DNA of 64,000 nucleotides from an uncultured Bdellovibrionales bacterium (GCA_964408435.1 CAYOZL010000002.1:344-64343); one strand, 5' to 3'; positions 4,015-42,599 are shown, numbered from the stretch's first letter. Notes: generated by a model from the letters alone, not told the origin. Made by a program: numbers and translations.

Positions 4015-4039
4015 CCTTATTTACTAAAATAAAAAAATA

Positions 4040-6160: not shown

Positions 6161-6302
6161 AGTTATTGTACTAAAGTGGTGCTTGCATTACACAATAACA
6201 TATCAATCAATAGTGTGTTTATACTTCAGTAATTTATGTAGTAAATCAATAGTAATGGTATAAATAAAGCAGATTTAGACAGGTTTAACTAATAAAAAGT
6301 AG

Positions 6303-8795: not shown

Positions 8796-8882
8796 ACTGC
8801 TTTTAACTTTTGTCTGATTTTGGTGCTATATTATTAAGCTTGATTATAAAATCAGCTTGTTAGAGCGTCAATTAAAAACTGC

Positions 8883-9701
8883 TTAAGAAAGATAAAACCA
8901 GGTAACAATAGATAACAATGCGGTATAAATAGAAAAAGGTAGCAAATTATGGTTTTTAGCTAGTTTGTCTAAAAGTTTTAGAGCAAAAATTCCTAATACA
9001 AAAGCAGTTAGCATACTTGGTAAAGTCGAGATTAAACCGTATTCAAAGCTATTAAAGTTCCCTTTTAAAACTTCTAATAGTAGAGCCCCTAATGCTGCAG
9101 GTATAAATATAAAAAAAGAATATTTCACACTACTGTATGCAGATACGCCACAAGCTAAAGCAATACAAATTGTCATTCCAGAGCGTGAGACTCCAGGGAA
9201 GATTGCAAATGCTTGCGCAATACCAATTATAACAGCTTGTAAGTAAGTAGGAACTATGAAGTGTTCTTGTTTAACTAGAGGTTTAAAATATTTATGAGTG
9301 ATAAATATAACAACACTAGTTAGAGCAAAACCGTATGATAGAAATTTACTAGTTCCAAATGATGTTTCAATAAAGTCTTTAAAAAAGAGAACTGTTAAAA
9401 CTGCAGGAATTGTTGATATTACTACCTTAATAGATAAGTCTAAAAGAGTAGATTCTTTAAGTGTTTCTATTTTTAAATTATCAAATTTAAGCATTTTCTT
9501 TATTTCAGGCCAAAGGAAAAACAAAGAGGAAAATAAAGTTCCAATATGTAAAAGTATATCTAAAGTAAAGGAGTTACTGATTTGATTCTCAAAGACGATA
9601 TTTTGAAATAAAACTAAATGACCAGAAGAACTCACTGGTAAAAACTCTGTTAAAGCTTGTACAGTGGCTAGAAATAAGGAAAATAATATAAACTGAATCA
9701 T
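8883..9701 (-). CDS. uppP: undecaprenyl-diphosphatase
   Basis: LTEFLPVSSSGHL and PGVSRSGMTI are UppP/BacA motifs, and the protein has multiple TM helices. Confidence 0.9.
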   Translation of the reverse strand: MIQFILFSLFLATVQALTEFLPVSSSGHLVLFQNIVFENQISNSFTLDILLHIGTLFSSLFFLWPEIKKMLKFDNLKIETLKESTLLDLSIKVVISTIPAVLTVLFFKDFIETSFGTSKFLSYGFALTSVVIFITHKYFKPLVKQEHFIVPTYLQAVIIGIAQAFAIFPGVSRSGMTICIALACGVSAYSSVKYSFFIFIPAALGALLLEVLKGNFNSFEYGLISTLPSMLTAFVLGIFALKLLDKLAKNHNLLPFSIYTALLSIVTWFYLS

Positions 9702-9780
9702 CTTTAAAATATTTCTCTATTTTTTAATTGTAAAGTATAGCAATTTACTATATTTAAAAAAATAGAGAAATTACATTTTA

Positions 9781-10134
9781 TTGGGATTAAAAATGGCAAA
9801 AAGTGCAAGTAACTTAGAGCAAGCTTTAGTTGAATTAATAGATGGCTATATTGAGTTAGAATCATCATCTAATAAAGCTTACGGAGATGATGAAGACTCA
9901 TTTTCAAACTCTATTATAGAAGGTTTAGAGACATCTCTAGATGCTGCAATTGAGGAGTCTAATATTTCTACTACTGAATTTGCAACATTGTTAGCTAATC
10001 TTAGCGAAGCACTTGAACAAATTGACCCAAGTGCTTTTGAAGAGGATGTTTTTGATGAAGATGAAGATAACGGAATGGAATCTTTATCTGATCTAGAGGA
10101 TTACGATGAAGACGGTGATGAAGATTATCACTAG
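9781..10134 (+). CDS. hypothetical highly acidic protein
   Basis: 117 aa, rich in D and E, with the C-terminus EDYDEDGDEDYH. No domain is recognised. Confidence 0.4.
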   Translation: MGLKMAKSASNLEQALVELIDGYIELESSSNKAYGDDEDSFSNSIIEGLETSLDAAIEESNISTTEFATLLANLSEALEQIDPSAFEEDVFDEDEDNGMESLSDLEDYDEDGDEDYH

Positions 10135-10200
10135 ATAATCTGTTAACTTATTCCTGTGCCTTTCTAGCTTATATAAAAAAAAATCTTTTTTCAGTACTCT

Positions 10201-12009
10201 TTAATCACTAGTTTGCTTCTTCTCATTTAACCTAATACCAAGCTCCATAAGCTGTTCAACTGAAGCTGAAGTTGGCGCTGAAACCATTAAGTCTTGACCT
10301 CTTTGAGTTTTAGGAAAAGCAATTACATCTCTAATTGATTCAACATTATTTAGAATCATCGCAATCCTATCCAGTCCTAGCGCAATACCACCATGTGGTG
10401 GTGCTCCAAATGAGAGTGCATCGAGTAAAAATCCAAATTTTTTCTTCGCATCTTCTTTAGAGATACCTAGAAGATTAAATATTTTAGATTGAATTTCTGA
10501 ATCATGGATTCTAATACTACCACCACCAATCTCTTGGCCGTTTAGTACTATATCGTATGCTCTTGCCCTTACCTTAGAAAGATCTGCTTTAGAGATATCT
10601 CCTTTAGAATTATCACTTCCTAGGTTATCCAAATCCTCTTCTAATGGTGAAGTAAAAGGATGATGAACAGAAACATATCTGCCAAGCTCTGGACTATGTT
10701 CGAACAATGGAAATTTTTCTACCCATAAAAAGCTAAATTTATCTGAATCAATTAAATCTAATTTTTTTGCTAAATGTGTCCTCAGGTTACCTAAAGCAGG
10801 GTTAGTTATACCTTCTTGGTCAGCTATGAATAAAATCAAATCACCATTTTCTACTTTGAGTAAATCTTTTATTGATTTTAATTCGTCTTCATTAAAAAAC
10901 TTAACAATAGATGATTTAAACTCATCATCTTCATATTTAAGCCAAGCTAGCCCTTTTGCTCCGTAATTTTTAACGTAGTTAGTTAGATCATCAATTTCTT
11001 TTCTAGAGAAACTAGAAGCATTCTTTGCATTTATTGCTTTAATCAGACCATTGCTATTAAGAGTATCTTTAAAGACTTTAAAATCACTATTAGCAAAGAC
11101 TTCATTTAATTCTACTAATTCCATCTCGAATCTCATATCAGGAGCATCGAGACCAAATCTAGACATTGCTTCTTTGTAAGATATTCTAAGTAGAGGTAAT
11201 TCCACATTGTAATCTAGAGTTTCTTTCCAAATTGTAGCTACTAAATTCTCAGCTAAATTTTGAATGTCATTTTCATCAACAAAAGACATTTCCATATCAA
11301 TTTGGGTAAACTCAGGTTGTCGATTTGCTCTTAAATCCTCATCTCTAAAGCACTTTACAATTTGATAATATTTATCAAGGCACGCACACATTAAAACTTG
11401 TTTAAATAACTGTGGAGACTGAGGAAGAGCATAAAATTCCCCAGGACTAATTCTACTTGGCACTAAGAAATCCCTAGCACCTTCAGGAGTAGGCTTAGTT
11501 AAGATTGGTGTTTCTACTTCACAAAAACCTTCAGAATCTAAATAATTCCTCACTGATTTGTAGATTGAATGTCTAAGTCTAAGCCTTTTTTGCATTTCAG
11601 GTCTTCTTAGATCCAAATATCTATATTTTAATCTTAGTTCTTCTTTAGCCTCAATATTATCTTGAATTAGAAAAGGAGGAGTTTCAGATTTAGATAGTAG
11701 TTCAATTTTACTAACCTCAAGTTCCACTTCACCTGTTTCCATTTCAGGGTTAATAGTTCCTTCAGGTCTGCTTAAAACTTTTCCACTAACAGATATTACA
11801 TACTCAGAGCGTAGAGCTTCAGCTATTTCGAATGAGCTTTTATTCTCTGGCTTAAATACTATTTGAGCACTTCCGGAATAATCTGATAATTCTATGAAAA
11901 TCAATCCACCATGATCTCTTCTTCTTCTAACCCAGCCAGAAAGAGTAATTTCTTGATTTAATAATTCTGTATTTATCAAACCACAGCTATTAGTTCTAAA
12001 TTTTTGCAA
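10201..12009 (-). CDS. aspS: aspartate--tRNA ligase
   Basis: The N-terminal anticodon-binding OB fold (LSGWVRRRRDHGGLIFIELSDYSG) and class II catalytic motifs (FRDEDLR, GGGSIRIHD) are present. The protein is 602 aa. Confidence 0.95.
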   Translation of the reverse strand: MQKFRTNSCGLINTELLNQEITLSGWVRRRRDHGGLIFIELSDYSGSAQIVFKPENKSSFEIAEALRSEYVISVSGKVLSRPEGTINPEMETGEVELEVSKIELLSKSETPPFLIQDNIEAKEELRLKYRYLDLRRPEMQKRLRLRHSIYKSVRNYLDSEGFCEVETPILTKPTPEGARDFLVPSRISPGEFYALPQSPQLFKQVLMCACLDKYYQIVKCFRDEDLRANRQPEFTQIDMEMSFVDENDIQNLAENLVATIWKETLDYNVELPLLRISYKEAMSRFGLDAPDMRFEMELVELNEVFANSDFKVFKDTLNSNGLIKAINAKNASSFSRKEIDDLTNYVKNYGAKGLAWLKYEDDEFKSSIVKFFNEDELKSIKDLLKVENGDLILFIADQEGITNPALGNLRTHLAKKLDLIDSDKFSFLWVEKFPLFEHSPELGRYVSVHHPFTSPLEEDLDNLGSDNSKGDISKADLSKVRARAYDIVLNGQEIGGGSIRIHDSEIQSKIFNLLGISKEDAKKKFGFLLDALSFGAPPHGGIALGLDRIAMILNNVESIRDVIAFPKTQRGQDLMVSAPTSASVEQLMELGIRLNEKKQTSD

Positions 12010-12010
12010 T

Positions 12011-13099
12011 TTACATATCTCCTAAGTTTTTTTTTGCTTCTAAATTATCAGGGTTCAAATCTAGAGACATAAAAAAGTATTGTTTAGCATTTTCTTTATC
12101 ACCTAGTAAACTTTTTATTATGCCATAATTATTTAAAGCCGAACTATCGTTTTTAATGATATCAAGGTGTTTATCAAAAGATTTTAAATGTTCTTGGTTT
12201 TTAGTAAAAGCAACTGCCCATAGAAATGACTTAACTATTTCAGGATTCTTACTATTAGCTTTAAATAGCTTTAATAAGGTATCAAAAGAATTACTTTTTT
12301 CTAGCTTAATTTCAGTTAACAATTTTGAAATTAAAACATTAGTGTCCTTTTTAATGTTAATAGATTTATTAAATAAATCTATTGCTTTTTGATTATTGTT
12401 TTTTTGTAATTCTATTAATCCTTCGCAGTAATAGATATCATGATTTTTGTTGTTTCCTAAACTACTTAGTAACTTTTTTGCTTCTTTGAATTTATTCTGT
12501 TTAATAAAAACTCTACATAAAGAAGAAATTATTTCAGGACTATTATTAATATTAGAACTATTGAAAACAGATTCTAAAGTGATTCTTGCTTCTTCTAATC
12601 TATTTTGCATTTCTAAAGCCAGCGCTAAGTTATAATAATCTTCCTTGCTCTTAGATAATTTAATAGCTTGTTTGTATAGGCTCTCACTTTTTTTAAAATT
12701 ATTATTTTTAAATTCAATAGTAGCAAGCATTGAAAAGGCATAAGCTGAATTAGGCTCTTCTATTATAATACTATTTAATATCTCTTTAGCTTCTTCGTTT
12801 TCATTTTTTGCGATATGTAAATTTGCAGAAGCTAATTTAGTTAATGGACTCTTGTTAGAATTTTTTAAAGTTTTACGAGCTTTTTCAAAAGCATTTTTGC
12901 TTATTAAGTGCTCAACGTACTTATATACTATTTGTTCAGAACCTGGACATAAGGAGTAAGATTTGGCTATATCTTTTTCTATTAAGTGAATCGCCTGCTT
13001 GCAATCTTGATTTTGTACTTCAGAGCAAAGAGCGGTAGTGCTTAAGGCAAAGAGTATAATAAAGAGAAAGACAAAGTTAAATACTAACTTATTAAACAT
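12011..13099 (-). CDS. tetratricopeptide-repeat protein with signal peptide
   Basis: Multiple TPR-like helical repeats (AxxxLGxxxxxxxxYxEA patterns) and an N-terminal signal sequence. It overlaps aspS and the aminotransferase gene by only a few nucleotides. Confidence 0.65.
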   Translation of the reverse strand: MFNKLVFNFVFLFIILFALSTTALCSEVQNQDCKQAIHLIEKDIAKSYSLCPGSEQIVYKYVEHLISKNAFEKARKTLKNSNKSPLTKLASANLHIAKNENEEAKEILNSIIIEEPNSAYAFSMLATIEFKNNNFKKSESLYKQAIKLSKSKEDYYNLALALEMQNRLEEARITLESVFNSSNINNSPEIISSLCRVFIKQNKFKEAKKLLSSLGNNKNHDIYYCEGLIELQKNNNQKAIDLFNKSINIKKDTNVLISKLLTEIKLEKSNSFDTLLKLFKANSKNPEIVKSFLWAVAFTKNQEHLKSFDKHLDIIKNDSSALNNYGIIKSLLGDKENAKQYFFMSLDLNPDNLEAKKNLGDM

Positions 13100-14286
13100 T
13101 TTATTTTCTCCATAGCTAGTCTAATTTGAGGCTCATCAGCAATAGCAGCTACTCTAATATAACTAGAACTGTTTTTATCAAATCCTGAACCTGGGCAAAT
13201 AGCTATATTTTGTTTTTGAAGTAATTCATTAGCAAATTCACTAGAATTACCTTTAAAGTCCTTAGGTAACTTTGCCCAAGAAAAGACTGCAGAATTTACA
13301 GGAGCTACTTCAAAATTATTCGACTTAAGTGAGTTAGAAATAAGTTCCAAACGAGTTTGATAAATACTCTTATTGTTTTCTATACTTTCAATTGCAGTGT
13401 CGTAATGTTCAGATAAGAATTTAGATACTGCAATTTGAACCGCTTGAAATGCTCCGAAATCAATATAACTTTTTATTTTCTTTAATGCTCGAATGGCATT
13501 AGAGTTCCCTACCGTAAAGCCTATTCTCCATCCTGCTAGACCTAGTCCTTTCGAAAGAGAATATGTTTCTACGCAGCAATCCTTAGCTCCTTTAACACTT
13601 AACAAGCTAATACCTGGCTTATCAAATACTAAATCACCGTAAGCAAAATCATTAATTACTAAAACATTATTTTTCTTAGCAAAAGCAACAAGCTTTTCAT
13701 AAAAACATTTTGTAGCAATTGTATTAGTTGGGTTATTAGGAAAGTTAATTAATAAAGCCTTAGGTTTTGGCCAAGTTTTATTATAGATATTATTTAATTT
13801 TTCAAAGAAATTAGATTTTTCATCTAGATTATAATTACCCTCTTCAAGTGGCACTCCAATAAAACCCGCACCTGAAATAGCAGTTGCTGCAGAAAGTATT
13901 GGGTAAGCAGGCGTTGGAACGAGTATTGTATCCCCTACTCCAGCAATAGCTAGTAAGAGGTGCGAAATGCCTTCTTTTGAGCCTAGAGTTATAACAATCT
14001 CTTCATCTTCGTAGAGCTCAACTTCAAATCTTTTTTTATACCAATGCTTAGCTGTTTGGCGTAATTTTAATATACCTTGAGATGATGAATATGAGTGGTT
14101 ACTTTTTCTTAAACAAGACTCAACTAATAAGTCGATAGCAATATTAGAAATTGGCAAATTTGGTCTTATATTACTAAGGTCAATTACCTCATTGCCTTGT
14201 TCTCTGTGTATTTTAACAGAGTTTGCAATCTTACCCAGCTCATAAGGTGGCAAGGAGAAAGCTGGAAAGCTAGTGTCTTCCGGCAT
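13084..14286 (-). CDS. class I/II PLP-dependent aminotransferase
   Basis: YSLSKGLGLAGWRIGF carries the PLP lysine motif, and NPTN and the fold-type I architecture are present. Substrate specificity cannot be determined. Confidence 0.8.
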   Translation of the reverse strand: MPEDTSFPAFSLPPYELGKIANSVKIHREQGNEVIDLSNIRPNLPISNIAIDLLVESCLRKSNHSYSSSQGILKLRQTAKHWYKKRFEVELYEDEEIVITLGSKEGISHLLLAIAGVGDTILVPTPAYPILSAATAISGAGFIGVPLEEGNYNLDEKSNFFEKLNNIYNKTWPKPKALLINFPNNPTNTIATKCFYEKLVAFAKKNNVLVINDFAYGDLVFDKPGISLLSVKGAKDCCVETYSLSKGLGLAGWRIGFTVGNSNAIRALKKIKSYIDFGAFQAVQIAVSKFLSEHYDTAIESIENNKSIYQTRLELISNSLKSNNFEVAPVNSAVFSWAKLPKDFKGNSSEFANELLQKQNIAICPGSGFDKNSSSYIRVAAIADEPQIRLAMEKIKCLIS

Positions 14287-15121
14287 GATAGCTGCTTCTT
14301 ACAAGTGGGCCAATAAATACTTTTTCTATTCCGATATTCTTTGCTATTTCAGAGTAATCTTCAAACTCACTAGGCTCAAGGTATTTCTCAACCTCTAAAT
14401 GTTTTAAAGTTGGTCTCATATATTGACCAGCTGTAAAGATATCAATGCTGTGTTCTTTGCAATCTTTTATTAATTCAAGCACTTCCTCTTTTTTTTCACC
14501 TAGACCAAGCATAATTCCAGTTTTTGTTTTGATCTCTGAATTATAGTCTTTAACTATTTTTAGTAGTTTTAATGAATTCTTATAATTCGCTCCTGGTCTG
14601 ACTTTTCTATACAGTCTTGGAACAGTCTCTAAATTATGATTAATCACATCAACTTCAGTTTTAGCGATACTTAGTATTGAATCTTCGTTCATTCTAAAAT
14701 CTGGTATTAATACTTCTACTTTTATATTAGGTATTTCTTTTTTTAGTAGATTGATATTTTCAACAAATCCACTTGCTCCACCATCAGCTAAATCATCTCT
14801 AGCAACACTCGTAATAACCACATACTTAAGCTCAAGTGTTCTAACGGCATCAAGAACTGAGTGTGCTTCTTTTTTAAAGTTATCCTCTGGCATTAAAGGC
14901 TTTCCAGTATTAACTGAACAAAATCTACAACCTCTAGTGCAGATATCTCCTAGAATCATAAATGTGGCAGTACCACTAGAGAAGCATTCCTCAATATTTG
15001 GGCATCTGGCCTCCTCACAAACAGTATTTAAAGAAGACTTCCTAAGAATCCTCTTTAAATTTTCTGTTCTAGTTGAGTTCCCAGTACTTTTCTTTAACCA
15101 CTGAGGTAATCTTTGAGTCAT
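14270..15121 (-). CDS. lipA: lipoyl synthase
   Basis: CEEARCPNIEEC and the radical-SAM motif CTRGCRFC. Confidence 0.95.
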   Translation of the reverse strand: MTQRLPQWLKKSTGNSTRTENLKRILRKSSLNTVCEEARCPNIEECFSSGTATFMILGDICTRGCRFCSVNTGKPLMPEDNFKKEAHSVLDAVRTLELKYVVITSVARDDLADGGASGFVENINLLKKEIPNIKVEVLIPDFRMNEDSILSIAKTEVDVINHNLETVPRLYRKVRPGANYKNSLKLLKIVKDYNSEIKTKTGIMLGLGEKKEEVLELIKDCKEHSIDIFTAGQYMRPTLKHLEVEKYLEPSEFEDYSEIAKNIGIEKVFIGPLVRSSYHAGRH

Positions 15122-15148
15122 TATTCTATTACCACTATCAGCACCCTA

Positions 15149-15733
15149 TTACTGAGATCTAGGTGCTAGTATATCTTGAATTTTAATTGCCTTATCCATA
15201 CTCCCATCAACTTTAATCTTCTTAGATAACAAAGCTAACTGTGGATTTAATTTTCCATTAACTATTTCTAGAAAATCTCTAGAATCTATTTCAAGAGTTA
15301 CTTCAGGATCCTTTGAGCTTTTATTAATTTCTAAATCTTGATCAATTTCTAATAACCATTCACCTTCTTGACCTAAATCAAGCTTGTAAATTCCTTTAAG
15401 TGGCCCTAGCTCTTCAGGCTCTATAATATCAAATCGGTATAATACTTCAGTATTAAAAAATTCTTTTGCAGATGCTACTCCACTTTTCTTATAGCGTTTA
15501 TTGCCTCTAGCTTCCTCTTCTTCATCGAAGTCTTCATCATCATTTTCATCTTCAGAAGAATTTCCTTGTGCTTCAATATCATCAGATTCACTAGTAATAT
15601 CACTATTTGAATCTTCATTTGCCTCAATATTTTCTGTTTCCTGCTCAGCTAGATTTTCATCTGTATTCTTCGCTTCTTGCTCATTAGATTCTTGTTCTGC
15701 TACATCTTCGTTTTGTAATTCTTCGTCACTCAT
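15149..15733 (-). CDS. SCP2 sterol-carrier-like domain protein with an acidic N-terminal tail
   Basis: The C-terminal portion (KLNPQLALLSKKIKVDGSMDKAIKI) resembles the SCP-2 fold. The N-terminal ~90 aa are strongly acidic and low-complexity. Confidence 0.55.
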   Translation of the reverse strand: MSDEELQNEDVAEQESNEQEAKNTDENLAEQETENIEANEDSNSDITSESDDIEAQGNSSEDENDDEDFDEEEEARGNKRYKKSGVASAKEFFNTEVLYRFDIIEPEELGPLKGIYKLDLGQEGEWLLEIDQDLEINKSSKDPEVTLEIDSRDFLEIVNGKLNPQLALLSKKIKVDGSMDKAIKIQDILAPRSQ

Positions 15734-15835
15734 AAATATATATGCTCATTGTTAAGAAAATTAATCTTATCTGGATTAAATACTATAAAAAACATAATAT
15801 AATCGAGATTTTAAATAATTAAAAGAGACCTCATT

Positions 15836-16450
15836 TTGATAGAGAATACTAACAGCCCTACTAGCAAAGTAGCAGTAATTACAGGTACTATTGGTTCTGG
15901 CAAGAGCACTGTTTGTCAGATCCTTGAGAGTTTAGGTGCAAAAATAGTATATGCAGACCAACTTGCTAAAGAAGCTTTAAATAATACAGCAATTAATCAG
16001 ATTGTTGAAACTTTTGGTTCTGAAGTTGTAGTAGAGAATAAAATTAATAGAGAGAAACTAGCAGAATTAATTTTTAAAAATCCTGAGAAGAAAAAACAAT
16101 TAGAAAACTTAATTCACCCAATTGTTAGAGAAAAATCTAATTTACTTTTTAAAAAGTACATTAAGGAAGGACAAAAAGTTATAGTATACGAATGTCCATT
16201 ATTTTTTGAATCTGGTTTAGACCCTAAAGATTATAAAGAAGTTATACTTGTTAATACTGACGAAAAGGAAGGAATTAATAGAGCAAGCATAAGAGATAAT
16301 TTATCTAAAGACAAAATAAAACTTAGAAGTAGTGCTCAAATGCTTAATACAGAAAAAGTAGATTTATGTACTTACATATTAGATAACAATAAAGGAAATG
16401 AAGAGTTAAAAATAGAAGTAGAAAAGTTATTTAATAAATTGATAATCTAA
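15836..16450 (+). CDS. coaE: dephospho-CoA kinase
   Basis: The P-loop VITGTIGSGKSTV and the overall CoaE architecture. Confidence 0.9.
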   Translation: MIENTNSPTSKVAVITGTIGSGKSTVCQILESLGAKIVYADQLAKEALNNTAINQIVETFGSEVVVENKINREKLAELIFKNPEKKKQLENLIHPIVREKSNLLFKKYIKEGQKVIVYECPLFFESGLDPKDYKEVILVNTDEKEGINRASIRDNLSKDKIKLRSSAQMLNTEKVDLCTYILDNNKGNEELKIEVEKLFNKLII

Positions 16451-16458
16451 ATCAGATT

Positions 16459-18465
16459 CTAAACTAATTCCTTTAATCTTGTTATATTTATTATATCAAT
16501 TCCCAATTTTTTTGCTTTTTCATGCTTAGAGCCAGGGTCTTTGCCTAATACAAGATAACTCGTCTTTTTACTTATGCTGCTTGTAACTTTTCCACCTTGT
16601 GAAGTAATGAATTTCTTAAGATCATCTCTAGATTCATTTTCAAAACTTCCAGTAATAACAAAAGTCTTGCTTTCTAATTTATTTCCTAATTTTTCCTCAT
16701 GGCTAAAGATACATAAACTCTCTAGTTCTTCTAATTGTTCAATATTATTTGAAAAATACTCTTTAATAGATTCAGATACTTTAGGACCAATGTCATTTAC
16801 TTTTTCTAAGTCTTCAATTTTGGCATTACTTAGCTTCTCAATACTGTCAAAATTTTGAGCGAGTATTTCTGCAGAACGAACACCAATATGTCTAATACCA
16901 AGAGCATAAATAAATCTAGAAAAACTAATGTTCTTGCTTTTTTCAATTTCACTAAGAATATTCTCAGATAGTTTATCTCCCATTCTTTCTAGCTTCATTA
17001 AGTCATCTTTTTTTAAATTTAATATGTCAGAGAAATCATTAATTAATTTATCAGTATATAGTTTGTTAATTAGTTTTGTACCTAGTCCTTCAATGTTAAA
17101 GGCATTCTTGCTAACAAAGTGTTCTAAAGATTGAATAAGTTTTGCTGGGCATTTATTATTAATACAATAAGTGACAGCGTCAATTTTTTCTAAATTTCCA
17201 TTACATTCTGGACAAGTATTTGGGAAAATATATTTTTTCTCTTTATCAGTTCTTTTATCTAATAAAACTGAAGTCACAGCAGGAATAACATCACCTTGTC
17301 GTTTTACTATTACTGAATCTCCAATTCTAATATCTTTCCTTTCAATCTCATCTTTATTATGAAGAGTTGCTCTTGAGACTATTACTCCAGAGATACTAAC
17401 AGGATTAAGCTCCGCAACTGGTGTTATTGCTCCTGTTCTTCCTACCTGTATAGAAATATCGTTTACTATTGATACGGCCTCACCTGGCTTAAATTTCAAC
17501 GCGACAGCCCACCTAGGGCTTTTAGATCTCGAACCAAGCTCCTCCTGTATTTCTAAAGAGTCAACTTTAAGTACTAAACCATCTATTTCGTATTCAAGTT
17601 CATCTCTTCTTAATTCTTCTAGCTCGTAGCACTTAACAATGTCTGAAGCTTTAGCAGATACTAGCAAAGGTTTACTAACATCAAAGCCTGTGTCTTTTAA
17701 GTATTTTCTAATCTCACTTTGTTTATTAAATAGTTTATTTTTAGAAACTAGATTGTATGCATAAAATCTTAATGGCCTAGAAGCTGTGATTTTAGTATCA
17801 AGTTGTCTAACACTTCCTGATGCAGCATTTCTTGGATTAGAAAATGTTGCTAACTCTTTACTTTCTTGGTCTTTGTTTAATTTAATAAAATCTTTTTTTC
17901 GAATTAAGATCTCACCTCTTATTTCAACCTCTTCTTTAAGCTCTATTTTTTTTGGAATATTTTTAATAACAAAAGCATTCTCAGTAATATTTTCTCCCTT
18001 TTTACCATTGCCTCTAGTTGCAGCTAGTACTAATTTCCCATCTTTATATGTTAGTGAAATAGCAGCTCCATCAAACTTATGTTCTAATAAGTAATTCGTT
18101 TTCGATTCAAGATTTTTTTCTGTCCTCTCTACCCATTTTATGATTTCACTATTATCTTTTGCATTCTCTAACGAAAGCATAGGAAACATATGAGTGATTT
18201 CTTTTAACTCTGAGTTAGTAGTGTCTGCCCCTACCTTATTTAAAACTGAATTATTATTAAAAAAATTGGGGTAATTCTTACTGTAAGTTAAAAGCTCTCT
18301 ATATAGCTTATCGTATTCAGAATCTAAAAGCTTAGATTTATCTTTAATATAATAATCAATATTAGCTTTTGCTAATTTGTTTTCTAAAAAGTTAATTCTT
18401 TTTTCTATATCTTTTATCTCTTCTTTTTTACTAGGCAAGTATATTCTCCTTTTTAAGAGAATCAA
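16459..18465 (-). CDS. ligA: NAD-dependent DNA ligase
   Basis: The adenylation motif KxDG region, OB fold, Zn-binding cysteines CPECNGNLEK...C, HhH motifs and a C-terminal BRCT domain. The 5' end overlaps the upstream GT gene by 35 nt. Confidence 0.95.
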   Translation of the reverse strand: MILLKRRIYLPSKKEEIKDIEKRINFLENKLAKANIDYYIKDKSKLLDSEYDKLYRELLTYSKNYPNFFNNNSVLNKVGADTTNSELKEITHMFPMLSLENAKDNSEIIKWVERTEKNLESKTNYLLEHKFDGAAISLTYKDGKLVLAATRGNGKKGENITENAFVIKNIPKKIELKEEVEIRGEILIRKKDFIKLNKDQESKELATFSNPRNAASGSVRQLDTKITASRPLRFYAYNLVSKNKLFNKQSEIRKYLKDTGFDVSKPLLVSAKASDIVKCYELEELRRDELEYEIDGLVLKVDSLEIQEELGSRSKSPRWAVALKFKPGEAVSIVNDISIQVGRTGAITPVAELNPVSISGVIVSRATLHNKDEIERKDIRIGDSVIVKRQGDVIPAVTSVLLDKRTDKEKKYIFPNTCPECNGNLEKIDAVTYCINNKCPAKLIQSLEHFVSKNAFNIEGLGTKLINKLYTDKLINDFSDILNLKKDDLMKLERMGDKLSENILSEIEKSKNISFSRFIYALGIRHIGVRSAEILAQNFDSIEKLSNAKIEDLEKVNDIGPKVSESIKEYFSNNIEQLEELESLCIFSHEEKLGNKLESKTFVITGSFENESRDDLKKFITSQGGKVTSSISKKTSYLVLGKDPGSKHEKAKKLGIDIINITRLKELV

Positions 18466-23145: not shown

Positions 23146-23880
23146 TTATAATACTGCTTCTTTCAAAGCTTTATTAGGGCTAAATTTAACTCTTTTTCTA
23201 GCAGAAATTCTAATAACTTCTCTAGTTAAAGGATTAATTCCCATTCTAGCCTTACTCTTTCTTACGTACATCTTACCTAAGTTTGGTAAAGGTACTCGAT
23301 ATCCGCTCTTTAAAGACTCATGAATAATTCCAACAAAAGATGCATAGAATTCTTTAGCATTCTTCTTTGATGTGAAACCAACATAAGAAACTAAATTGTC
23401 ATACAGCTCAGATTGCGAATACTTATTAGTAGCTGAGTTCTTAGGCTTACTAAGCACTTTTTTACTCGGCGCTAAATAAGTAGGCTTTTTAACAACTACT
23501 TTAGCTACTTTTTTAACTGCTTTTTTCTTAGCCTTCTTCTTAGCAGGCTTTTTCTTTGCTACTTTTTTCTTAGTAACTTTCTTTTTAGCCTTCTTTTTAG
23601 TTACCTTCTTCTTAGTTGTTTTCTTTTTTGTAGCTTTCTTTTTAACTACCTTTTTCTTAGTAGCTTTTTTCTTAGCTACTTTCTTCTTAGTAACTTTCTT
23701 TTTAGCAGTCTTTTTCTTAGCTGCAGCTTTTTTCTTTACTGGCTTTTTTTTCGTAGTTTTCTTCTTTGTAGCTTTTTTCTTTGTTACTTTCTTTTTAACT
23801 ACTTTTTTCTTAGTAGCTTTTTTCTTAGCTGGTTTCTTTTTTGTTGTTTTCTTTTTAGTTGCCAATTTAATTTCCTCCAA
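23146..23880 (-). CDS. histone H1-like lysine-repeat protein fused to an HU/IHF-type DNA-binding domain
   Basis: The N-terminal ~150 aa consist of KKK(A/T/V)TKKKV repeats. The C-terminal ~90 aa (RVPLPNLGKMYVRKSKARMGINPLTREVIRISARKRVKFSP) form an HU fold with a beta-arm. Confidence 0.8.
   Translation of the reverse strand: MEEIKLATKKKTTKKKPAKKKATKKKVVKKKVTKKKATKKKTTKKKPVKKKAAAKKKTAKKKVTKKKVAKKKATKKKVVKKKATKKKTTKKKVTKKKAKKKVTKKKVAKKKPAKKKAKKKAVKKVAKVVVKKPTYLAPSKKVLSKPKNSATNKYSQSELYDNLVSYVGFTSKKNAKEFYASFVGIIHESLKSGYRVPLPNLGKMYVRKSKARMGINPLTREVIRISARKRVKFSPNKALKEAVL
23500..23870. repeat. tandem ~30-nt coding repeats (lysine-rich decapeptide repeats) within the HU-like gene
   Basis: Visible periodic units such as cttagtagctttttt, cttagctactttctt and cttagtaactttctt. 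The unit number could vary. Confidence 0.7.
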
Positions 23881-36442: not shown

Positions 36443-36754
36443 TTAATTACAATTCATATAAGCATCCCAAGGGCTGTATAAATAACCTACATATGGGAGT
36501 GAACCTACTAAGCCTGGTAGAAAGCTTCTTTGCACTGTAACTGAGCTCCAACTAGAGCAGTTTTGATTCTTGGTTGAAATTGGCTCACTAAACTCAACTA
36601 AACTTATAATTCCAATGTGATGCCAATTATCAAAATCTTGACCTACTATATCTATATTTGAAGTTGGTGAAGATGCTGCTTTTTTAAAATGCATTGTATG
36701 ACAAGCTGATAACAATGGAATAAGTAAAGCTAATGATAAAATTTTATATTTCAT
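36443..36754 (-). CDS. Bor/Iss-family-like small lipoprotein (divergent paralogue)
   Basis: Lipobox LLSAC. The C-terminal half (FLPGLVGSLPYVGYLYSPWDAYMNC) parallels the Bor C-terminus of the adjacent gene. Confidence 0.5.
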   Translation of the reverse strand: MKYKILSLALLIPLLSACHTMHFKKAASSPTSNIDIVGQDFDNWHHIGIISLVEFSEPISTKNQNCSSWSSVTVQRSFLPGLVGSLPYVGYLYSPWDAYMNCN

Positions 36755-36781
36755 TTTAATTCTCCTATATTTTTCACTAAT

Positions 36782-37072
36782 CTATCTACACCAAACTCGA
36801 TAAGAGCGTGGGGAATATATACCTAATGTAATGGCACCTAATAACCCATCTATAAAAGTTGTTTGGGCTTGAAATTGTTTCGGTGTTGCTCCACCACAAT
36901 GATTAGCTAAAACAACATCAACTGATTCTGGAGTTAATCCCCATAAGAAAAAGTCAGTACTTTCTGAAACATCAGCATTAGAACTAACTCTTTGACCACC
37001 ATCTGGTCTTACAGTTACATTCGCACAAGAAGGCAACAGAAAGCTTAGACATAAAAATAAAATTATTCTCAT
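36782..37072 (-). CDS. bor: Bor/Iss family lipoprotein (phage lambda Bor-like)
   Basis: HCGGATPKQFQAQTTFIDGLLGAITLGIYSPRSYRVWC closely matches the conserved Bor core CGGAENVVKTETQQTFVNGLLGFITLGIYTP...C. The protein is ~96 aa and is a lipoprotein. Confidence 0.75.
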   Translation of the reverse strand: MRIILFLCLSFLLPSCANVTVRPDGGQRVSSNADVSESTDFFLWGLTPESVDVVLANHCGGATPKQFQAQTTFIDGLLGAITLGIYSPRSYRVWCR

Positions 37073-37290
37073 ATAGACCTCATTAATTAATAAATTAATA
37101 GATTATTAACATATGATATTATTTTAGACTAAGAGTTTATCTTGGTCTAAACAACTAATATATCTATCAATTTATATGCTTGGGTTGAATTAAGGGTTTC
37201 ATCTTTCATAATCAGTCCAGAATATAAATGTTTATAGCAAAATTTTTATTAAGAACGATTAAGTTTTTTTAATTTGACGATGAATATATT

Positions 37291-37755
37291 ATGGACAACA
37301 AGGAATCAGGTTTCACTCTTATAGAACTTTTAACTACAGTTGCTATCATTGGGATTTTAGCATCGATAGCAATACCTGAATATAATCAATATAAATCAAA
37401 AGCTTATAACGCTGTAGCATCGAGTGCTGCTAAGACTTTTTTTACTGCAGCAATTGCTAGAAGAACTGATAATGATTTTGACATACACGAATGCGCAACT
37501 CTTAACGCAGGAGATCATGATGTGCGTTGTGGTAACTTTGAAGGATTTGTAGATGATGGTGTGATAATGTGTGAATTGGTTAGTGAAGGTGAAGGGGATG
37601 GCGGGACGATAGGAAATATTGTTGCTGGTTGCGCTCATCTAAAAGGGAATAAGGCATATTCATACTCACTATTCGATCTATCAAGTCGAGATTTTGGATT
37701 ATTAATATGTGACTGTGATGATGATTTTTGTGACGGTGGTGACATTCTTTGTTAG
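37291..37755 (+). CDS. type IV pilin / pseudopilin (prepilin N-methylation motif) with a Cys/Asp-rich C-terminus
   Basis: SGFTLIELLTTVAIIGILASIAIPEY is the canonical class III signal and N-terminal helix. The C-terminus is LLICDCDDDFCDGGDILC. Confidence 0.8.
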   Translation: MDNKESGFTLIELLTTVAIIGILASIAIPEYNQYKSKAYNAVASSAAKTFFTAAIARRTDNDFDIHECATLNAGDHDVRCGNFEGFVDDGVIMCELVSEGEGDGGTIGNIVAGCAHLKGNKAYSYSLFDLSSRDFGLLICDCDDDFCDGGDILC

Positions 37756-37805: not shown

Positions 37806-37848
37806 TGGTGATACTTAGACTTGAACTAAGGACCTCGGAATTATGAGT
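37806..37848. repeat. 43-bp direct repeat (distal att-like copy of the tRNA 3' end)
   Basis: tggtgatacttagacttgaactaaggacctcggaattatgagt is identical to 42234..42276, which is the 3' 43 nt of the tRNA gene. Confidence 0.85.
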
Positions 37849-38104
37849 GGAATCTTTTTGAATTTTGTACACTCTTAATAACTTGTATATACCTAGCAAG
37901 TATTTATACTTCTTGAATTTCTCAATTTAATCAAATCTAAAGGTATTTCTTGGTTTCATAGAGTATTTGAGGGATTTCTTGCCCCCGGCATGCCCCAGAA
38001 TTGGGAAAGTTGCTGGAACAAATAGTGAGGCGTTGTTTGTAATAGGGGAATTTGGTCTTTTAAAGTTAAGTAAATATGCATTGACTGAAAAAACTCTATT
38101 AATT

Positions 38105-39403
38105 TTATTTTCTTAATTTCTTTTTTATACAAGTTGGGCACCATCCACCATTACGAATGCTAATTGGAGATGCTTTCCATTTATGCTTGAATTCACATTG
38201 CCATTCTAGCTTTGTTTTGGTGCCTAAATATTCTTTTGATAAACAGATACCTTTTCTCATTTTTGCAATTTCCTGCATACCCTCAATTGAATATAGTTTT
38301 TCACCAAAGCATATAGGACACCACATTCCTAAAATTACGGCTCTAGGATATGCTTTAAATTTGTGTTGTTTTGAACATGTGAAACTAATTTTACATGTAC
38401 TTAGAACCGCTGTTTTGTGTATGCACTCACCTCTATGTGACTTAGCGATTTTTTTCATCTGTTCAAGCGAGTATTTTCTAAGTTCAATATGTGCACACTT
38501 AGCGCACCAAGCTCCTTCTAGAATATTACTACCTCTAATTTCCCATTGGTGACCTTTAGAGCACTCAAAAAGTAATTTATGGAAATTATTTACATATTTT
38601 TCAGATAAGCATTTTCCTCCTTCTAATTCAGCGATAGTTTTGAAGTTTTCTATCGATAAGGATCTAGTTGGATTGCAAGATGGACACCATGAACCTTTTT
38701 TTATGTTAGCTGGCGTAGAAAGCCATTTGTGCCCAAGTTCACATTCCCACTCTAAGTGTGTTACAGCATTAAGATAGTTATTAGAAAGACATCTACCACC
38801 TTTAGATTTAGCAATTTCTTGCATTTCTTCTATGGTTAAAGGTCTTGAATTGGAACATAAGTAACACCAGGAACCGCTCTTTACTGAACCTGGATTGGCG
38901 TACCATCGATGTCCATTTGAACATTCCCACTCTAGCTTAGTATTGGCATTTTTATATACGGTAGAAAGACATCTACCACCTTTAGATTCAGCAATTTCTT
39001 GCATTTCTTCTATGCCTAAAGGTCTTGCACTGGAACATAAGCGACACCAACTTCCTTTTTTTACTGAATGAGCAGTGGCAAACCATTGATGTCCTTTTGA
39101 ACATTCCCACTTTAGCTTAAGATTGACATTTTTATATACTTTAGAAAGACATTTGCCTCCTCTGGATTTAGCAATTTCTTGCATTTTTTCTAATGACAAA
39201 GGTCTTGCTCGAGAACAAAGAAGGCACCATCTTCCTCTCTCTACTTGTGGTGGAAGAGCATGCCATCGATGTCCTTTGCTGCACTCCCATTCTAATTTAG
39301 TTGAAGTATTTATATATTCTTTTGAGATGCATTTCCCACCTCTGGATTCCGCAATTTTTTGCATGTCCTCGATTTTGAGTTTGCGATATTTGCGTTTAGC
39401 CAT
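38105..39403 (-). CDS. multi-zinc-ribbon repeat protein (7 tandem 60-aa C-C-H-C-C modules), paralogue A
   Basis: Repeats follow the pattern IEEMQEIAxSxGGKCLSxxYxNxxTKLEWECSxGHxWxAxPxxVxxGxWCxxC. The likely true start is the ATG at 39401-39403 (MAKRKYRKL), preceded by GAGG. The ORF track used an upstream TTG. Confidence 0.7.
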   Translation of the reverse strand: MAKRKYRKLKIEDMQKIAESRGGKCISKEYINTSTKLEWECSKGHRWHALPPQVERGRWCLLCSRARPLSLEKMQEIAKSRGGKCLSKVYKNVNLKLKWECSKGHQWFATAHSVKKGSWCRLCSSARPLGIEEMQEIAESKGGRCLSTVYKNANTKLEWECSNGHRWYANPGSVKSGSWCYLCSNSRPLTIEEMQEIAKSKGGRCLSNNYLNAVTHLEWECELGHKWLSTPANIKKGSWCPSCNPTRSLSIENFKTIAELEGGKCLSEKYVNNFHKLLFECSKGHQWEIRGSNILEGAWCAKCAHIELRKYSLEQMKKIAKSHRGECIHKTAVLSTCKISFTCSKQHKFKAYPRAVILGMWCPICFGEKLYSIEGMQEIAKMRKGICLSKEYLGTKTKLEWQCEFKHKWKASPISIRNGGWCPTCIKKKLRK

Positions 39404-39650
39404 ATCAAACCTCAATTAAAACATTAAATCAGTCAAAGCATAAACATTAATCCTAATGTTTATGCTCGTGAAAATTAAATTCTACCCGATAAATTTCAGT
39501 ATTTGTAAGTAGTATGAAAAGAACTTCTAATAGCTTAATATATCACAGTGTTTTGGCAAAAACTAGACGTGAATAAGTTAAGATTGTTATTAATAAGATT
39601 TTTTAAAATTTAAGGAGGCTTGCCAAATATTTAATAACCTTTAAAGTTTT

Positions 39651-40706
39651 TTATAAATCTTGTTCTTTCCCTTGGTAGAGTTTTCGTAGGGAATCTAAGT
39701 TTAATTTGCTATCTGTTGGTAACTCATTAAACGCTCTAACAGCTTGTTCTCGAACAGTTTTATCAGGGCAATTAAAAACAGACATAAGCACGGGTGCTAA
39801 TATGGCAGTTGCTCTGCTGACACTTCTATCTAGTTCAAGACCAAGCTCTACCCCGCCATTTGAGAAGGCTTCGATTAGATCGGTAATTGTTTTGAAACTA
39901 AGAGTAGTGTCTTCAAAATCAACTTCTTCTAGCTCTTGATCTATTAAGTTTAGAATGCCATCAAATGCAAAACCGATTACTTCAATTGCAGAGAGCTCTT
40001 TAGTTGAGGTAAGGAAAAGTTTTTTTCCTCTTCCAGCTGGTGCTGACCAACGTTCTAGCCTAGTACTGTTACTCCGTGTTCTTTTTATTTTTCCAAGTGA
40101 TTTTCTAAGTGCTGCTCCAAGCTCGTGAGCAGTAAGATTCTTTTCAATGACCTCACTTGCATATCTTTCCATTTCCTTCTCAGTTGGAAATTGAGCAATC
40201 CTATAGGCCATCGTCAACGGAATTTTACTTTCATCAATAAGGTGAAGTATATTTTTGGGTAGTTTCAATAAACGAACAGTTTTCTTTATTAAATCGATAC
40301 TGTAGGTTGGTAAACTTTCGTGAAGTTGTCTTGCTCCCCAACCTTTTTCAGTCATTACAGCCTGAAAGGATTCTGCACGTTCTGAGGCTAGAAGATCTTT
40401 CTTAGCGCCGTCTTCAACAAGCTGATCCATGATAATATCCACTCTACTCATGGTTACATCACTGACAATGCTTGGAGCTTTTTCCCAGCCAAGATGCTTC
40501 ATCGCTCTTAGTCTTATTTCGCCAGAGATTAAAATGAATCTGTCTCCATTTGGTCTGACTTTAATTCTTCTTTTCAGGTCGTTTTTTTCAATACTTCTTG
40601 CTCTTTTTTCAATGTCTTTCTCTGTGATGGTTTTTCGAGGTTGATTTGGATCGAAATCAATCAAAGCTATATCAATATCCATCATTTGATCTGGTTTTTT
40701 GGCCAC
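39651..40706 (-). CDS. ParB/Srx-like nuclease-domain protein with HTH (orphan, no ParA)
   Basis: IDIALIDFDPNQPRK...IKVRPNGDRFILISGEIRLRAMKHLG matches the ParB N-terminal box including GxxRxxA. An HTH follows, and the C-terminal region is helical. Confidence 0.7.
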   Translation of the reverse strand: MAKKPDQMMDIDIALIDFDPNQPRKTITEKDIEKRARSIEKNDLKRRIKVRPNGDRFILISGEIRLRAMKHLGWEKAPSIVSDVTMSRVDIIMDQLVEDGAKKDLLASERAESFQAVMTEKGWGARQLHESLPTYSIDLIKKTVRLLKLPKNILHLIDESKIPLTMAYRIAQFPTEKEMERYASEVIEKNLTAHELGAALRKSLGKIKRTRSNSTRLERWSAPAGRGKKLFLTSTKELSAIEVIGFAFDGILNLIDQELEEVDFEDTTLSFKTITDLIEAFSNGGVELGLELDRSVSRATAILAPVLMSVFNCPDKTVREQAVRAFNELPTDSKLNLDSLRKLYQGKEQDL

Positions 40707-41067
40707 GGTAAATCCCTTATAAAAACGCTATTGAGATTGTTAGTTATTTGGCAATAAATCGCCCCAAATAATTATAATAATTATCTAAGACAACTTATTA
40801 GTTTTATGGCTGATATTTAAATTATAAAGAACGAATAGATTGAGTTATATTTTCATAGAGTAGATTTTACTATAAAATAGTGATAAATTGCAAATCAGCT
40901 GAAATAATACCTAGAATTACTTATAAGTCGTTAAAATATAAGATTTAGAAATTATAACAGTAAGTTCTTTTATAATTATATAATTGTAGAACCTTATTTA
41001 ATGCGTGAAAAGAGATTTGAATTACTTTTCACGCTTTGACTGGTTATTGTTTTTTTTGAGGTTTGTC

Positions 41068-42174
41068 ATGGCAAGACTTAGATATACGATTAAGGATATG
41101 CAAAAAATTGCTACATCAAGAGGTGGTAAATGCTTATCAGATAGCTACGCAGGTCTAAAAACCAAACTTGAGTGGCAATGCGCAGATGGGCATCGTTGGA
41201 ATTCTACACCTCATAGCATTATTTATACTAAGTCATGGTGTTTAGCTTGTGCAGGAGTTAAGCCACTAACATTAGACGAGATGCAAAAGATTGCTAAATC
41301 TAGAGGTGGTAAGTGCTTATCTAAGGAGTATTTTAACAATAGAACTAAACTCGAATGGCAATGCGCAAATGGACATCGCTGGTTTGCTGCTCCTAAAGAT
41401 GTAAAAAAGGGAACATGGTGTTTTTATTGTTCCAGCACTAAATTAACAATTGAAGAAATGCAAGAAATTGCTAAATCAAGAGGTGGTAAGTGTTTGTCTA
41501 GAGATTACTTAGGAATTTTTACTAAACTAGAATGGGAATGCGCAAAAAAGCATCGTTGGCAAGCCCAACCTAATGACATTAGAAAGGGAGGATGGTGTCC
41601 TTATTGTAGTGGAAGACTATCTAGGACAATCGAAGAGTTTCAACTAATTGCTGAACTCGAAGGTGGCAAGTGCTTATCTACGGAATATGTAAAAGATTTG
41701 ATTCCTCTACGCTTTAGATGCTCGGAAGGTCATGAATGGGAAGCAATAGGAAGTAATATAAAAAAGGGAACATGGTGTCCTGTATGCTCTAATCGAAAGT
41801 ACTCAATTAGGGAGATGCAAGAGATAGCGGAGTCTCAAAACGGTAAGTGCTTGTCTAAAGGCGTCATTACTAGAAAAACAAGAGTGGAATTTCAGTGTAA
41901 GGAAAAACATGTTTTTAGAGCACTTCCTAGAGCTATTGAGTTCGGTATGTGGTGTCCTAAATGTTTTGGAGACAAGCTGTATACCATTGAAGGAATGAAA
42001 GAAATTGCAAAAATGAGAGGTGGAGACTGTTTATCTAAGGAATATTTAGGTGTTACGAAAAAGCTTAAATGGACTTGTGAATTTTCCCATACTTGGACTG
42101 CACTCCCTAATCCTATTAGAGATGGAGGATGGTGTCCTGTTTGTTTTGAGATTGCAAGAAAGAAACAGATTTAA
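41068..42174 (+). CDS. multi-zinc-ribbon repeat protein (6 tandem 60-aa modules), paralogue B
   Basis: It has the same repeat architecture as paralogue A and a homologous C-terminus (GGWCPxC). The preferred start is ATG 41068 (MARLRYTIKDMQKIA), preceded by GAGG. The GTG at 41005 used by the ORF track is less likely. Confidence 0.7.
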   Translation: MARLRYTIKDMQKIATSRGGKCLSDSYAGLKTKLEWQCADGHRWNSTPHSIIYTKSWCLACAGVKPLTLDEMQKIAKSRGGKCLSKEYFNNRTKLEWQCANGHRWFAAPKDVKKGTWCFYCSSTKLTIEEMQEIAKSRGGKCLSRDYLGIFTKLEWECAKKHRWQAQPNDIRKGGWCPYCSGRLSRTIEEFQLIAELEGGKCLSTEYVKDLIPLRFRCSEGHEWEAIGSNIKKGTWCPVCSNRKYSIREMQEIAESQNGKCLSKGVITRKTRVEFQCKEKHVFRALPRAIEFGMWCPKCFGDKLYTIEGMKEIAKMRGGDCLSKEYLGVTKKLKWTCEFSHTWTALPNPIRDGGWCPVCFEIARKKQI

Positions 42175-42233
42175 AAAAGGTTTGTCAGTCAAAGTAATTA
42201 CATAATTACTCAATTAAATCGATAAGCAAAAAA

Positions 42234-42307
42234 TGGTGATACTTAGACTTGAACTAAGGACCTCGGAATTATGAGTTCCGCGCTCTAACCAGCTGAGCTA
42301 TATCACC
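42234..42307 (-). tRNA. tRNA with CAU anticodon (elongator Met, or Ile2-lysidine type)
   Basis: The minus-strand sequence GGTGATATAGCTCAGCTGGTTAGAGCGCGGAACTCATAATTCCGAGGTCCTTAGTTCAAGTCTAAGTATCACCA folds into a cloverleaf. The acceptor stem is 7 bp, the anticodon stem-loop is CGGAA/CTCATAA/TTCCG, and the T-loop is TTCAAGT. The G1:C72 pair argues against an initiator. Confidence 0.85.
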
Positions 42308-42467
42308 CTAGGATTTGCTTTGTTTTTGAGGTGAGAATCTACTTATTCTTTCCAATTTTAGCAATACTAATAGCATTAAATACATATAAATAAGCTTGTA
42401 TTATATATCTTGAGTCAAGAGTAAGTAGGTATGATTTGTTTGTTTTTCAGGTTTTTGAAGCTAATAA

Positions 42468-42497: not shown

Positions 42498-42599
42498 ATT
42501 TTATTATTAGCGTAAACCTCGGAAAAATCGTTCTAAACGATTTTGAGAATGAAGAAAAACAAACACATCATACCTACGTTTTATTTATCTATCAAGAAT

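Follow-up and report, generated by a model that had tools for sequence, protein, structure and literature searches.

Within a 64,000-nucleotide stretch of DNA from an uncultured marine Bdellovibrionales bacterium (GCA_964408435.1 CAYOZL010000002.1:344-64343; hereafter, the window), a segment of about 4.4 kb abuts the 3' end of a gene for tRNA-Met(CAT). This islet carries exactly three genes: a central gene for a ParB-like protein and, on either side of it, two genes for zinc-finger arrays, which we call ZnA and ZnB. We propose, with a probability of roughly 0.6, that the islet is the relic of an integrative element at tRNA-Met(CAT) that lacks an integrase gene and is similar to a cis-mobilizable element (CIME). 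An initial annotation of the window had suggested just such an insertion in the 3' part of the tRNA gene, and the extent and orientation of a 43-bp repeat, the deviant GC content at third codon positions (GC3) of the islet genes, and the variability of the DNA past the tRNA all support it. The islet would extend from position 37806 to about 42233, with a further 43-bp core inside the tRNA gene (Table 1).

The two ends of the islet are marked by a perfect direct repeat, in agreement with the att-like flanks first annotated. The 43 bases from 37806 to 37848 are identical to those from 42234 to 42276 (43/43), and a repeat search allowing up to 3 mismatches found just these two copies in the 64-kb window (mean of 0.00 in 100 shuffles). 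The copies lie 4428 bp apart on the same strand and in the same orientation. As had also been noted, the repeated segment is the 3' part of the minus-strand tRNA, from the anticodon loop to the discriminator: it takes in one base of the 5' anticodon-stem strand (the last), the loop (CTCATAA), both the variable arm and the T arm, and the 3' side of the acceptor stem up to and including the discriminator, and the identity ends exactly at both limits. ARAGORN and Rfam predicted a single tRNA gene in the window. Aligning the tRNA to the window revealed no further tRNA fragments, and an Rfam scan of the islet found no structured RNA family other than the tRNA. The repeat is far longer than any target duplication known for a transposase. 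A regenerated tRNA gene with a displaced 3' fragment in direct orientation is the signature of insertion by a tyrosine integrase. In genomic islands at tRNA genes (tDNA islands) formed by such enzymes, the target is regenerated and the displaced 3' fragment is found at the other end (PMC4383910).

From this arrangement, we infer both the mechanism of integration and the loss or absence of an integrase. Site-specific recombination would have occurred within the tRNA-Met(CAT) gene of this bacterium. The incoming element would have held the 3' 43 nt of tRNA-Met in its attachment site (attP), and a tyrosine integrase would have recombined this site with the chromosomal gene, with the crossover somewhere between the anticodon loop and the 3' end. 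Because the incoming DNA would have carried its own copy of this part of the gene, the tRNA gene (42234-42307) would have been regenerated from element DNA, while the original 3' half would have been displaced to the far end (37806-37848). Since the islet encodes no recombinase, it would today be either a relic that no longer moves or an element dependent on an integrase from another source. The arms between the repeats and the array genes are unequal: the ZnA-side arm comprises 256 bp between the repeat and the ZnA stop codon, and the tRNA-side arm comprises 59 bp, about 37 bp of which lie beyond the motif that follows ZnB. The sequence CTCAATTTAATC at 37921 in the ZnA-side arm has a similar counterpart, CTCAATTAAATC, at 42209 in the tRNA-side arm; this weak shared CTCAATTWAATC element could be an arm-type site, and it is the only candidate for one. 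Promoter and terminator scans did not exceed chance level. A 10-nt inverted repeat (TTGCCAAATA) that brackets the ParB-like gene was set aside because, by a rough estimate, a chance match of this kind is likely in 4.4 kb of AT-rich DNA.

A 43-bp repeat might also have caused a wrong join to one or both flanks, in which case the islet would be an artefact of assembly. The outer left junction, from the pilin flank to the repeat, is present solely in the window's own record; a JGI metagenome contig of the left flank (L119) ends at 37270, just short of the type IV pilin gene, and a second JGI contig (L001) ends at 40743. However, both inner junctions reappear in two further assemblies of this population. 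L001, which is 99.98% identical to the window, runs without a break from polysaccharide genes, LepA, LipB, and the phosphoesterase gene through the complete tRNA, including its 5' half, and the repeat into ZnB and beyond. A Logan contig (L120), 100% identical to the window, begins at 37819, 13 nt into the left repeat, and continues through ZnA into the ParB-like gene; it carries the tRNA 3' fragment, without the 5' half, abutting the ZnA side. Logan contigs are assembled with k=31, and the 30 nt of repeat with which L120 opens are what such an assembly is expected to leave at a repeat. With both inner junctions fixed by L001 and L120, no linear arrangement other than that of the window is consistent, and we regard a misassembly as very improbable. 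L001 lacks a 74-bp segment (42394-42467) between the tRNA and the phosphoesterase gene, indicating that at least two strains carry the islet. One arm of a 24-nt inverted repeat (42425-42448 / 42554-42577) falls within this segment.

The gene content and the composition of the islet also set it apart. As first annotated, it contains no integrase, excisionase, or replication gene; we found no transfer gene either, and open reading frames (ORFs) in alternative frames had no Pfam match. There were likewise no remnants of a relaxase, a coupling protein, a type IV secretion system, or an integrase in the islet. Nor was a recombinase seen elsewhere in the 64-kb window, where the ORFs of at least 110 amino acids (aa) were judged by eye, appeared housekeeping-like, and were not profile-scanned. 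The islet is richer in GC than its surroundings, but the contrast first estimated (38% versus 29%) was overstated: the measured values are 35.1% in the islet, 31.4% over the whole window, and 31-33% in flanks of 10 kb, and part of the excess comes from the Cys-, Gly-, and Trp-rich proteins encoded. GC3 is a cleaner test of composition. It was 0.252 for ZnA, 0.276 for the ParB-like gene, and 0.276 for ZnB, compared with 0.195 +/- 0.025 for 51 other genes of the window (z-scores of +2.3 to +3.3); no gene of the window exceeds the value common to the ParB-like gene and ZnB, and ZnA is tied for fifth place. The neighboring pilin and Bor-like genes had normal GC3 values.

We also compared the locus with that of related bacteria. 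The closest genomes are metagenome-assembled genomes (MAGs) of uncultured Bdellovibrionota/Bdellovibrionales, with phosphoesterases of 58-74% amino-acid identity, and all of them keep the order LepA-LipB-phosphoesterase-tRNA-Met, with synteny confined to this 5' side of the tRNA. What follows the tRNA differs. In two relatives, a methyltransferase gene comes directly after tRNA-Met (L006, 9420-9585; L007, 10733-10842); in a third (L004), about 6 kb of extra DNA lies between the tRNA and the methyltransferase gene (10946-17008); and an 84%-identical sister species (L002) has a Y1-transposase gene, the remnant of a short-chain dehydrogenase gene, and a globin gene there. These differences identify the 3' side of the tRNA as a variable locus in the clade. 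The islet genes are missing in L002 and in the six relatives examined at the locus (L004-L009), none of which has tRNA fragments within 10 kb. The initial annotation had pointed to an empty site in related genomes as a check: the islet genes are absent from these relatives, but so are the genes of the window's left flank, and hence there is no clean empty site. Exact-protein look-ups of the flanking genes led only to this population (L001, L119, and L120) and to the sister species L002, and a scan of metagenome contigs gave nothing above 63% identity.

The missing empty site and the missing integrase would be expected if the three genes were ordinary chromosomal genes and the 43-bp copy had come from a local duplication or recombination, with no element inserted. 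The named closest partial relative of the ParB-like protein (P0259), which comes from a Bdellovibrionales MAG, would suit this explanation too, as the three-gene module could be old in the phylum. We nevertheless consider it improbable. The limits of the repeat, at the discriminator and at the boundary of the anticodon stem-loop, fit an integrase and are unexpected of a random duplication; GC3 deviates in all three genes; the genes are missing at this locus in the six relatives; and the module also occurs in a contig of about 52% GC (described below), implying horizontal movement.

The islet might instead have never needed an integrase of its own and be an active hitchhiker, a satellite-like or CIME-type element that is still excised, transferred, and re-integrated by the integrase and the phage or conjugative machinery of a helper with the same target in tRNA-Met. 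Its two att copies show no mismatch, the three genes and their cis motifs are intact and free of debris, the two arms share the weak element described above, and the zinc-finger domain is of the type found in CapR, the repressor of a phage-inducible chromosomal island-like element (PLE) satellite (PMC8096241). The satellite-like label itself, however, has the name of the CapR domain as its sole basis. No helper was seen in the 64-kb window, the att 43-mer and a 25-mer from its core were absent from the viral contigs of IMG/VR, and no related intact element turned up in IMG/VR or in the phage and plasmid collections. Relatives of the ParB-like protein were not present on IMG/VR viral contigs, and phages and plasmids gave only generic matches to its N-terminal half. 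No empty site was found among the assemblies and relatives examined, no circular form was observed, and the islet contains none of the hallmark genes of satellites (int, alpA, primase/rep, or packaging). We consider a hitchhiker unlikely, and much the weaker account next to an integrative relic.

As a proposed relic, the islet resembles two known classes of elements. Like the tDNA islands identified by Islander (PMC4383910), it has a regenerated tRNA, a displaced cognate 3' fragment in direct orientation, ends defined to the nucleotide, a block of identity from the anticodon loop to the 3' end, and a deviant composition. It differs in being only 4.4 kb long, with three genes, no integrase, and no phage or conjugation genes; without an integrase gene, it would fail Islander's integrase filter. 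Like CIMEs (PMC5704250; ICEberg 2.0, PMC6323972), it has attL and attR sites and no genes for integration or transfer. CIMEs are described as decayed integrative and conjugative elements (ICEs) or integrative and mobilizable elements (IMEs), known mostly from Bacillota and often found in tandem with a functional partner (PMC5704250; PMC6323972). The islet, in contrast, bears no trace of ICE or IME ancestry and has no partner element in the window; it fits the description of a CIME but shows no sign of such a descent. Genes typical of phage satellites such as phage-inducible chromosomal islands (PICIs), PLEs, or P4-like elements are also missing, as the islet has no integrase, replication/primase, helper-interference, or packaging gene. 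Judged by its genes, the islet is not a phage satellite, a partition system, a homing endonuclease, or a catalogued defense system.

Table 1. Positions of the islet features (window coordinates unless a contig is named)
Feature	Position	Strand	Evidence
Intact tRNA-Met(CAT), putative integration target	42234..42307	-	ARAGORN; Rfam tRNA 72 bits
Putative att core, regenerated half (tRNA 3' 43 nt)	42234-42276	-	Repeat search, tRNA alignment
Putatively displaced tRNA 3' fragment, far end of islet	37806..37848	-	tRNA positions 32-74, 43/43 identical
Non-coding arm, 229 bp, from displaced fragment to ZnA-side motif	37849..38077	.	Sequence
Bracket motif GCATTGACTGA, downstream of ZnA, facing inward	38078..38088	+	Motif search
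ZnA, 432 aa, seven CapR-type/DUF4379 treble-clef units	38105..39403	-	Pfam, repeat units, gene call P0169
Bracket motif GCTTTGACTGA, 26 nt upstream of ZnA start codon, preceded by a hairpin	39429..39439	-	Motif search
ParB/Noc/KorB-type protein, 351 aa	39651..40706	-	Pfam, TIGR00180, AF2 model, Foldseek, family alignment
AT-rich divergent intergenic region (~28% GC) between ParB-like gene and ZnB; L001 ends inside	40707..41032	.	Sequence
Bracket motif GCTTTGACTGG, 25 nt upstream of ZnB start codon, preceded by a hairpin	41033..41043	+	Motif search
ZnB, 368 aa, six zinc-finger units, ZnA paralogue	41068..42174	+	Pfam, repeat units, gene call P0130
Bracket motif ACTTTGACTGA, one mismatch to GCNTTGACTGR	42185..42195	-	Sequence
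Motif positions in contig L130	3948, 5326, 6895, 8268, 8481, 9686, 11332, 12700		

The central gene had been labeled a ParB-like nuclease with a helix-turn-helix (HTH) domain. Its ParB_N and HTH domains were recovered (PF02195, 2.7e-12; PF17762, HTH_ParB, 2.6e-10), whereas there is no evidence for a nuclease. The protein also scored above the cutoff for the ParB/RepB/Spo0J family (TIGR00180; 69.9 bits versus 58.45). In an AlphaFold2 model (mean pLDDT of 88.6), the first ~200 residues matched ParB, Noc, and KorB at an E value of about 1e-11 using Foldseek, and the last ~140 residues formed a β-hairpin and five helices that matched nothing; they represent a family-specific C-terminal domain. Taken together, the predicted product is a partition or regulator protein of the ParB/Spo0J/Noc type. 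The islet has no ParA gene, and the 64-kb window contains no canonical parS site at up to 3 mismatches. At the position of the CTP motif, this protein reads GEIRLRA and its closest full-length relative (P0258, 39% identity) reads GEMRYRA, while more distant family members keep GERRxRA. A word-indexed search with the protein returned only generic matches to its N-terminal half, but an exhaustive HMMER scan revealed a small family of full-length relatives; besides P0258, it comprises P0259, which is partial (42% identity), and five other members with 25-29% identity. The intergenic region that separates the ParB-like gene from ZnB presumably holds the promoters of both genes.

ZnA and ZnB are 54-55% identical and mutually inverted, consistent with the paralogous pair of zinc-ribbon genes first annotated on either side of the ParB-like gene. 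They are built wholly of units of about 60 residues with the pattern ...MQEIAKSRGGKCLS..Y......L.W.C..GH.W........G.WCP.C, which Pfam labels DUF4379 (a probable treble-clef zinc finger) and the CapR homology domain (for ZnA, 1.5e-16 and 7e-13, respectively). One internal unit (..EFQLIAELEGGKCLSTEYV..) occupies an equivalent position in ZnA, ZnB, and two proteins of the related locus on contig L130 described below, so the units of an array are individually conserved and not interchangeable. Neither protein has a nuclease domain, the PHROG profiles of HNH and other endonucleases gave partial-length matches only, and none of the three islet proteins matched the defense models of PADLOC-DB v2. The wider family of zinc-ribbon repeat proteins is large, with more than 3600 proteins at an E value of 1e-10 or less across bacteria and archaea. 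The members examined are uncharacterized and lie mostly in variable regions (defense islands, large plasmids, and a phage-like contig), settings that fit a role in conflict but do not prove it.

Two observations on the surroundings of other array genes are recorded here for their own sake. A Bacillus thuringiensis plasmid (NZ_CP085410.1; L134, 5335-7875) carries a gene for a 190-aa tyrosine-type recombinase 85 nt ahead of, and on the same strand as, a 627-aa zinc-ribbon repeat gene; three other plasmid loci showed no such pairing, and the idea that array genes go together with small tyrosine recombinases was dropped. On another contig (L124, ~47% GC), an array gene is flanked by an imperfect direct repeat of ~45 nt (about 7900-7990 and 9540-9620; ..CCTCAC.GGATT.ACC...GCCTT.TCAAT.AC.TGCA..), which was seen by eye and not reported by the repeat finder.

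Each array gene of the islet is bracketed by an 11-nt motif, GCNTTGACTGR, which has three exact matches in the 64-kb window (0.17 expected). Four of the five occurrences of its core (TTGACTG/CAGTCAA) in the window mark the four ends of ZnA and ZnB; the last of these, with one mismatch to the full motif, lies 11 nt past the ZnB stop codon, with a small hairpin after it and the 3' end of the tRNA 38 nt on. The resemblance of TTGACTG to a sigma-70 -35 box was considered and rejected, because only 25-26 nt separate the motif from the start codons in the window, and the ribosome-binding site falls within that gap. The same combination of genes and motif recurs beside P0258, on a contig of about 52% GC (L130; ENA ERZ25070591 ctg141621). 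Four array genes and two ParB-like genes are found there in the order Zn-ParB-Zn-Zn-ParB-Zn (3992-12652), all on one strand and adjoining polysaccharide-synthesis genes; the 12.7 kb of this contig, which ends right after the last motif, contain no tRNA. All eight core sites of L130 flank its array genes: each gene has one site 31-65 nt ahead of its annotated start codon and an inverted one past its stop codon, the latter forming part of a GCGCATTGAC...GTCAATGCGC palindrome. In an alignment of the upstream regions of the six array genes, twelve columns were invariant. Thus, every array gene that adjoins a ParB-like gene, in the window and in L130, has an inward-facing inverted motif on both sides, although the two genomes differ by about 20 points of GC, whereas the array genes checked elsewhere, which lack a ParB neighbor, have no bracket motif. 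The recurrence of gene combination and motif in an unrelated contig indicates that the module is a conserved unit. The association of ParB-like gene, arrays, and motif is specific and conserved, so far at two loci, and it appears undescribed in the literature and libraries searched.

Inverted motifs that bracket a gene in the manner of terminal inverted repeats, as these do in two unrelated genomes, raise the question of whether the islet is a novel element that moves by itself, with the ParB-like protein, the arrays, or both directing recombination and GCNTTGACTGR forming the ends of a mobile cassette. The array genes do occur in multiple copies and in regions rich in mobile elements or defense genes. 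We consider this the least probable of the explanations weighed here: no catalytic domain of a recombinase, transposase, or nuclease was detected in the three proteins, there are no target-site duplications beside the motifs, the motif is absent around array genes without a ParB neighbor, and ordinary integrase chemistry accounts for the 43-bp tRNA repeat. Even as a group, native DNA, misassembly, and self-mobility are unlikely.

The cargo module is intact and self-contained, and how it works can be inferred tentatively from what is known of the protein families. The ParB-like protein, or the arrays themselves, may bind the bracket motifs and thereby control expression of the array genes, and the arrays may act as sequence-specific DNA binders with long footprints, in regulation or in conflict with mobile DNA. 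Proteins of the ParB family load at specific sites and can be regulators, as are KorB and BisD (PMC12409273). The ParB_N domain and HTH fold of the islet protein are shared with KorB of RK2, BisD of ICEclc, and Noc; like BisD, the islet protein has an extra family-specific domain, and its gene lies on an integrated element, with no ParA partner gene in the islet. It differs from all three in reading GEIRLRA for GERRxRA and in having zinc-finger arrays as neighbors, and its candidate site, GCNTTGACTGR, is unlike canonical parS. For the arrays, the closest studied counterpart is CapR, a PLE-satellite repressor derived from T5orf172 homing endonucleases, whose four cysteines are needed for DNA binding and which acts on a mobile element as a nuclease-free, purely DNA-binding derivative (PMC8096241). 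ZnA and ZnB contain the same cysteine-based zinc-finger domain (PF21817, DUF4379); by comparison, they have 6-7 tandem units in 368-432 aa, no nuclease domain, and no PLE functions around them. They are members of the stand-alone DUF4379/CapR zinc-ribbon proteins, among which only the copies in the window and in L130 adjoin a ParB-like gene and carry the motif; the others checked have neither.

In a more speculative vein, and with odds clearly against it, the cargo might be an undescribed two-component DNA-targeting system, in which a clamp with a ParB fold, possibly gated by CTP, and modular CapR-type arrays act at their own GCNTTGACTGR sites and are carried between distant bacteria by minimal tRNA islets that lack a recombinase. 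Such a system, if real, might serve as a defense, as a silencer directed against mobile elements, or as a new cassette system. More generally, a combination of ParB with CapR-type arrays would, if true, amount to a regulatory or conflict module of a new kind, from which programmable DNA binders might be drawn, and the large family of zinc-ribbon repeat proteins would gain its first functional handle. This comes at a time when ParB-family clamps are increasingly recognized as regulators on mobile elements (BisD and KorB).

Several points weigh against the proposal that the islet is an integrase-less integrative relic with a conserved cargo. The 59-bp tRNA-side arm is short for an attP arm of the lambda type. 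No empty site was found in a close relative, and the islet is present, whole or in part, in all three assemblies of the population. Decay is not directly visible, as the islet contains no pseudogene debris from integrase or transfer genes, and no integrase that could act in trans was seen in the 64 kb to which our view of this genome is limited. The GC3 shift is modest. As for the cargo, a distant ParB relative (P0263, 28% identity) has no annotated array genes beside it, and the association of module and motif is known from two loci only. The element itself is ordinary, as att-flanked tRNA islets without an integrase are a known end state of integrative elements, and this one adds a case from the marine Bdellovibrionota, a little-studied group. 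The cargo module is the more interesting part and a good lead.

The islet lies among housekeeping genes. The left flank contains a FadB-like gene, MetK, RapZ, two Bor-like lipoprotein genes, and the type IV pilin gene; the right flank contains the metallophosphoesterase gene, LipB, LepA, and genes for sugar-nucleotide enzymes. The exact pilin protein encoded within 37270-37755 is recorded only from the NCBI source, and the pilin may vary between strains. The two small lipoprotein genes adjoin each other (36443-37072) and resemble Bor of lambda (PF06291; one strong and one weak match). At the tRNA-Met locus of the sister species L002 (1487-3013), the Y1 (HUH) transposase gene lies between direct repeats of 65 nt and 36 nt that are 88-89% identical and include a C-terminal fragment of the short-chain dehydrogenase gene. 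In L004, a high-GC distant relative, the extra DNA encodes an 815-aa secreted repeat protein and has no tRNA fragment at its end; the gene right after tRNA-Met (11271-12266) shows weak similarity to that Y1-transposase gene of L002 (25% identity; E value of 3e-8) and has an NHYHH motif, although Pfam does not recognize it. Elsewhere in the window, a gene at 23146-23880 encodes an HU/IHF-like protein with an N-terminal extension of ~130 residues made of KKKxxKKK/AKK repeats, similar to the tail of histone H1, and its GC3 of 0.265 is among the highest in the window.

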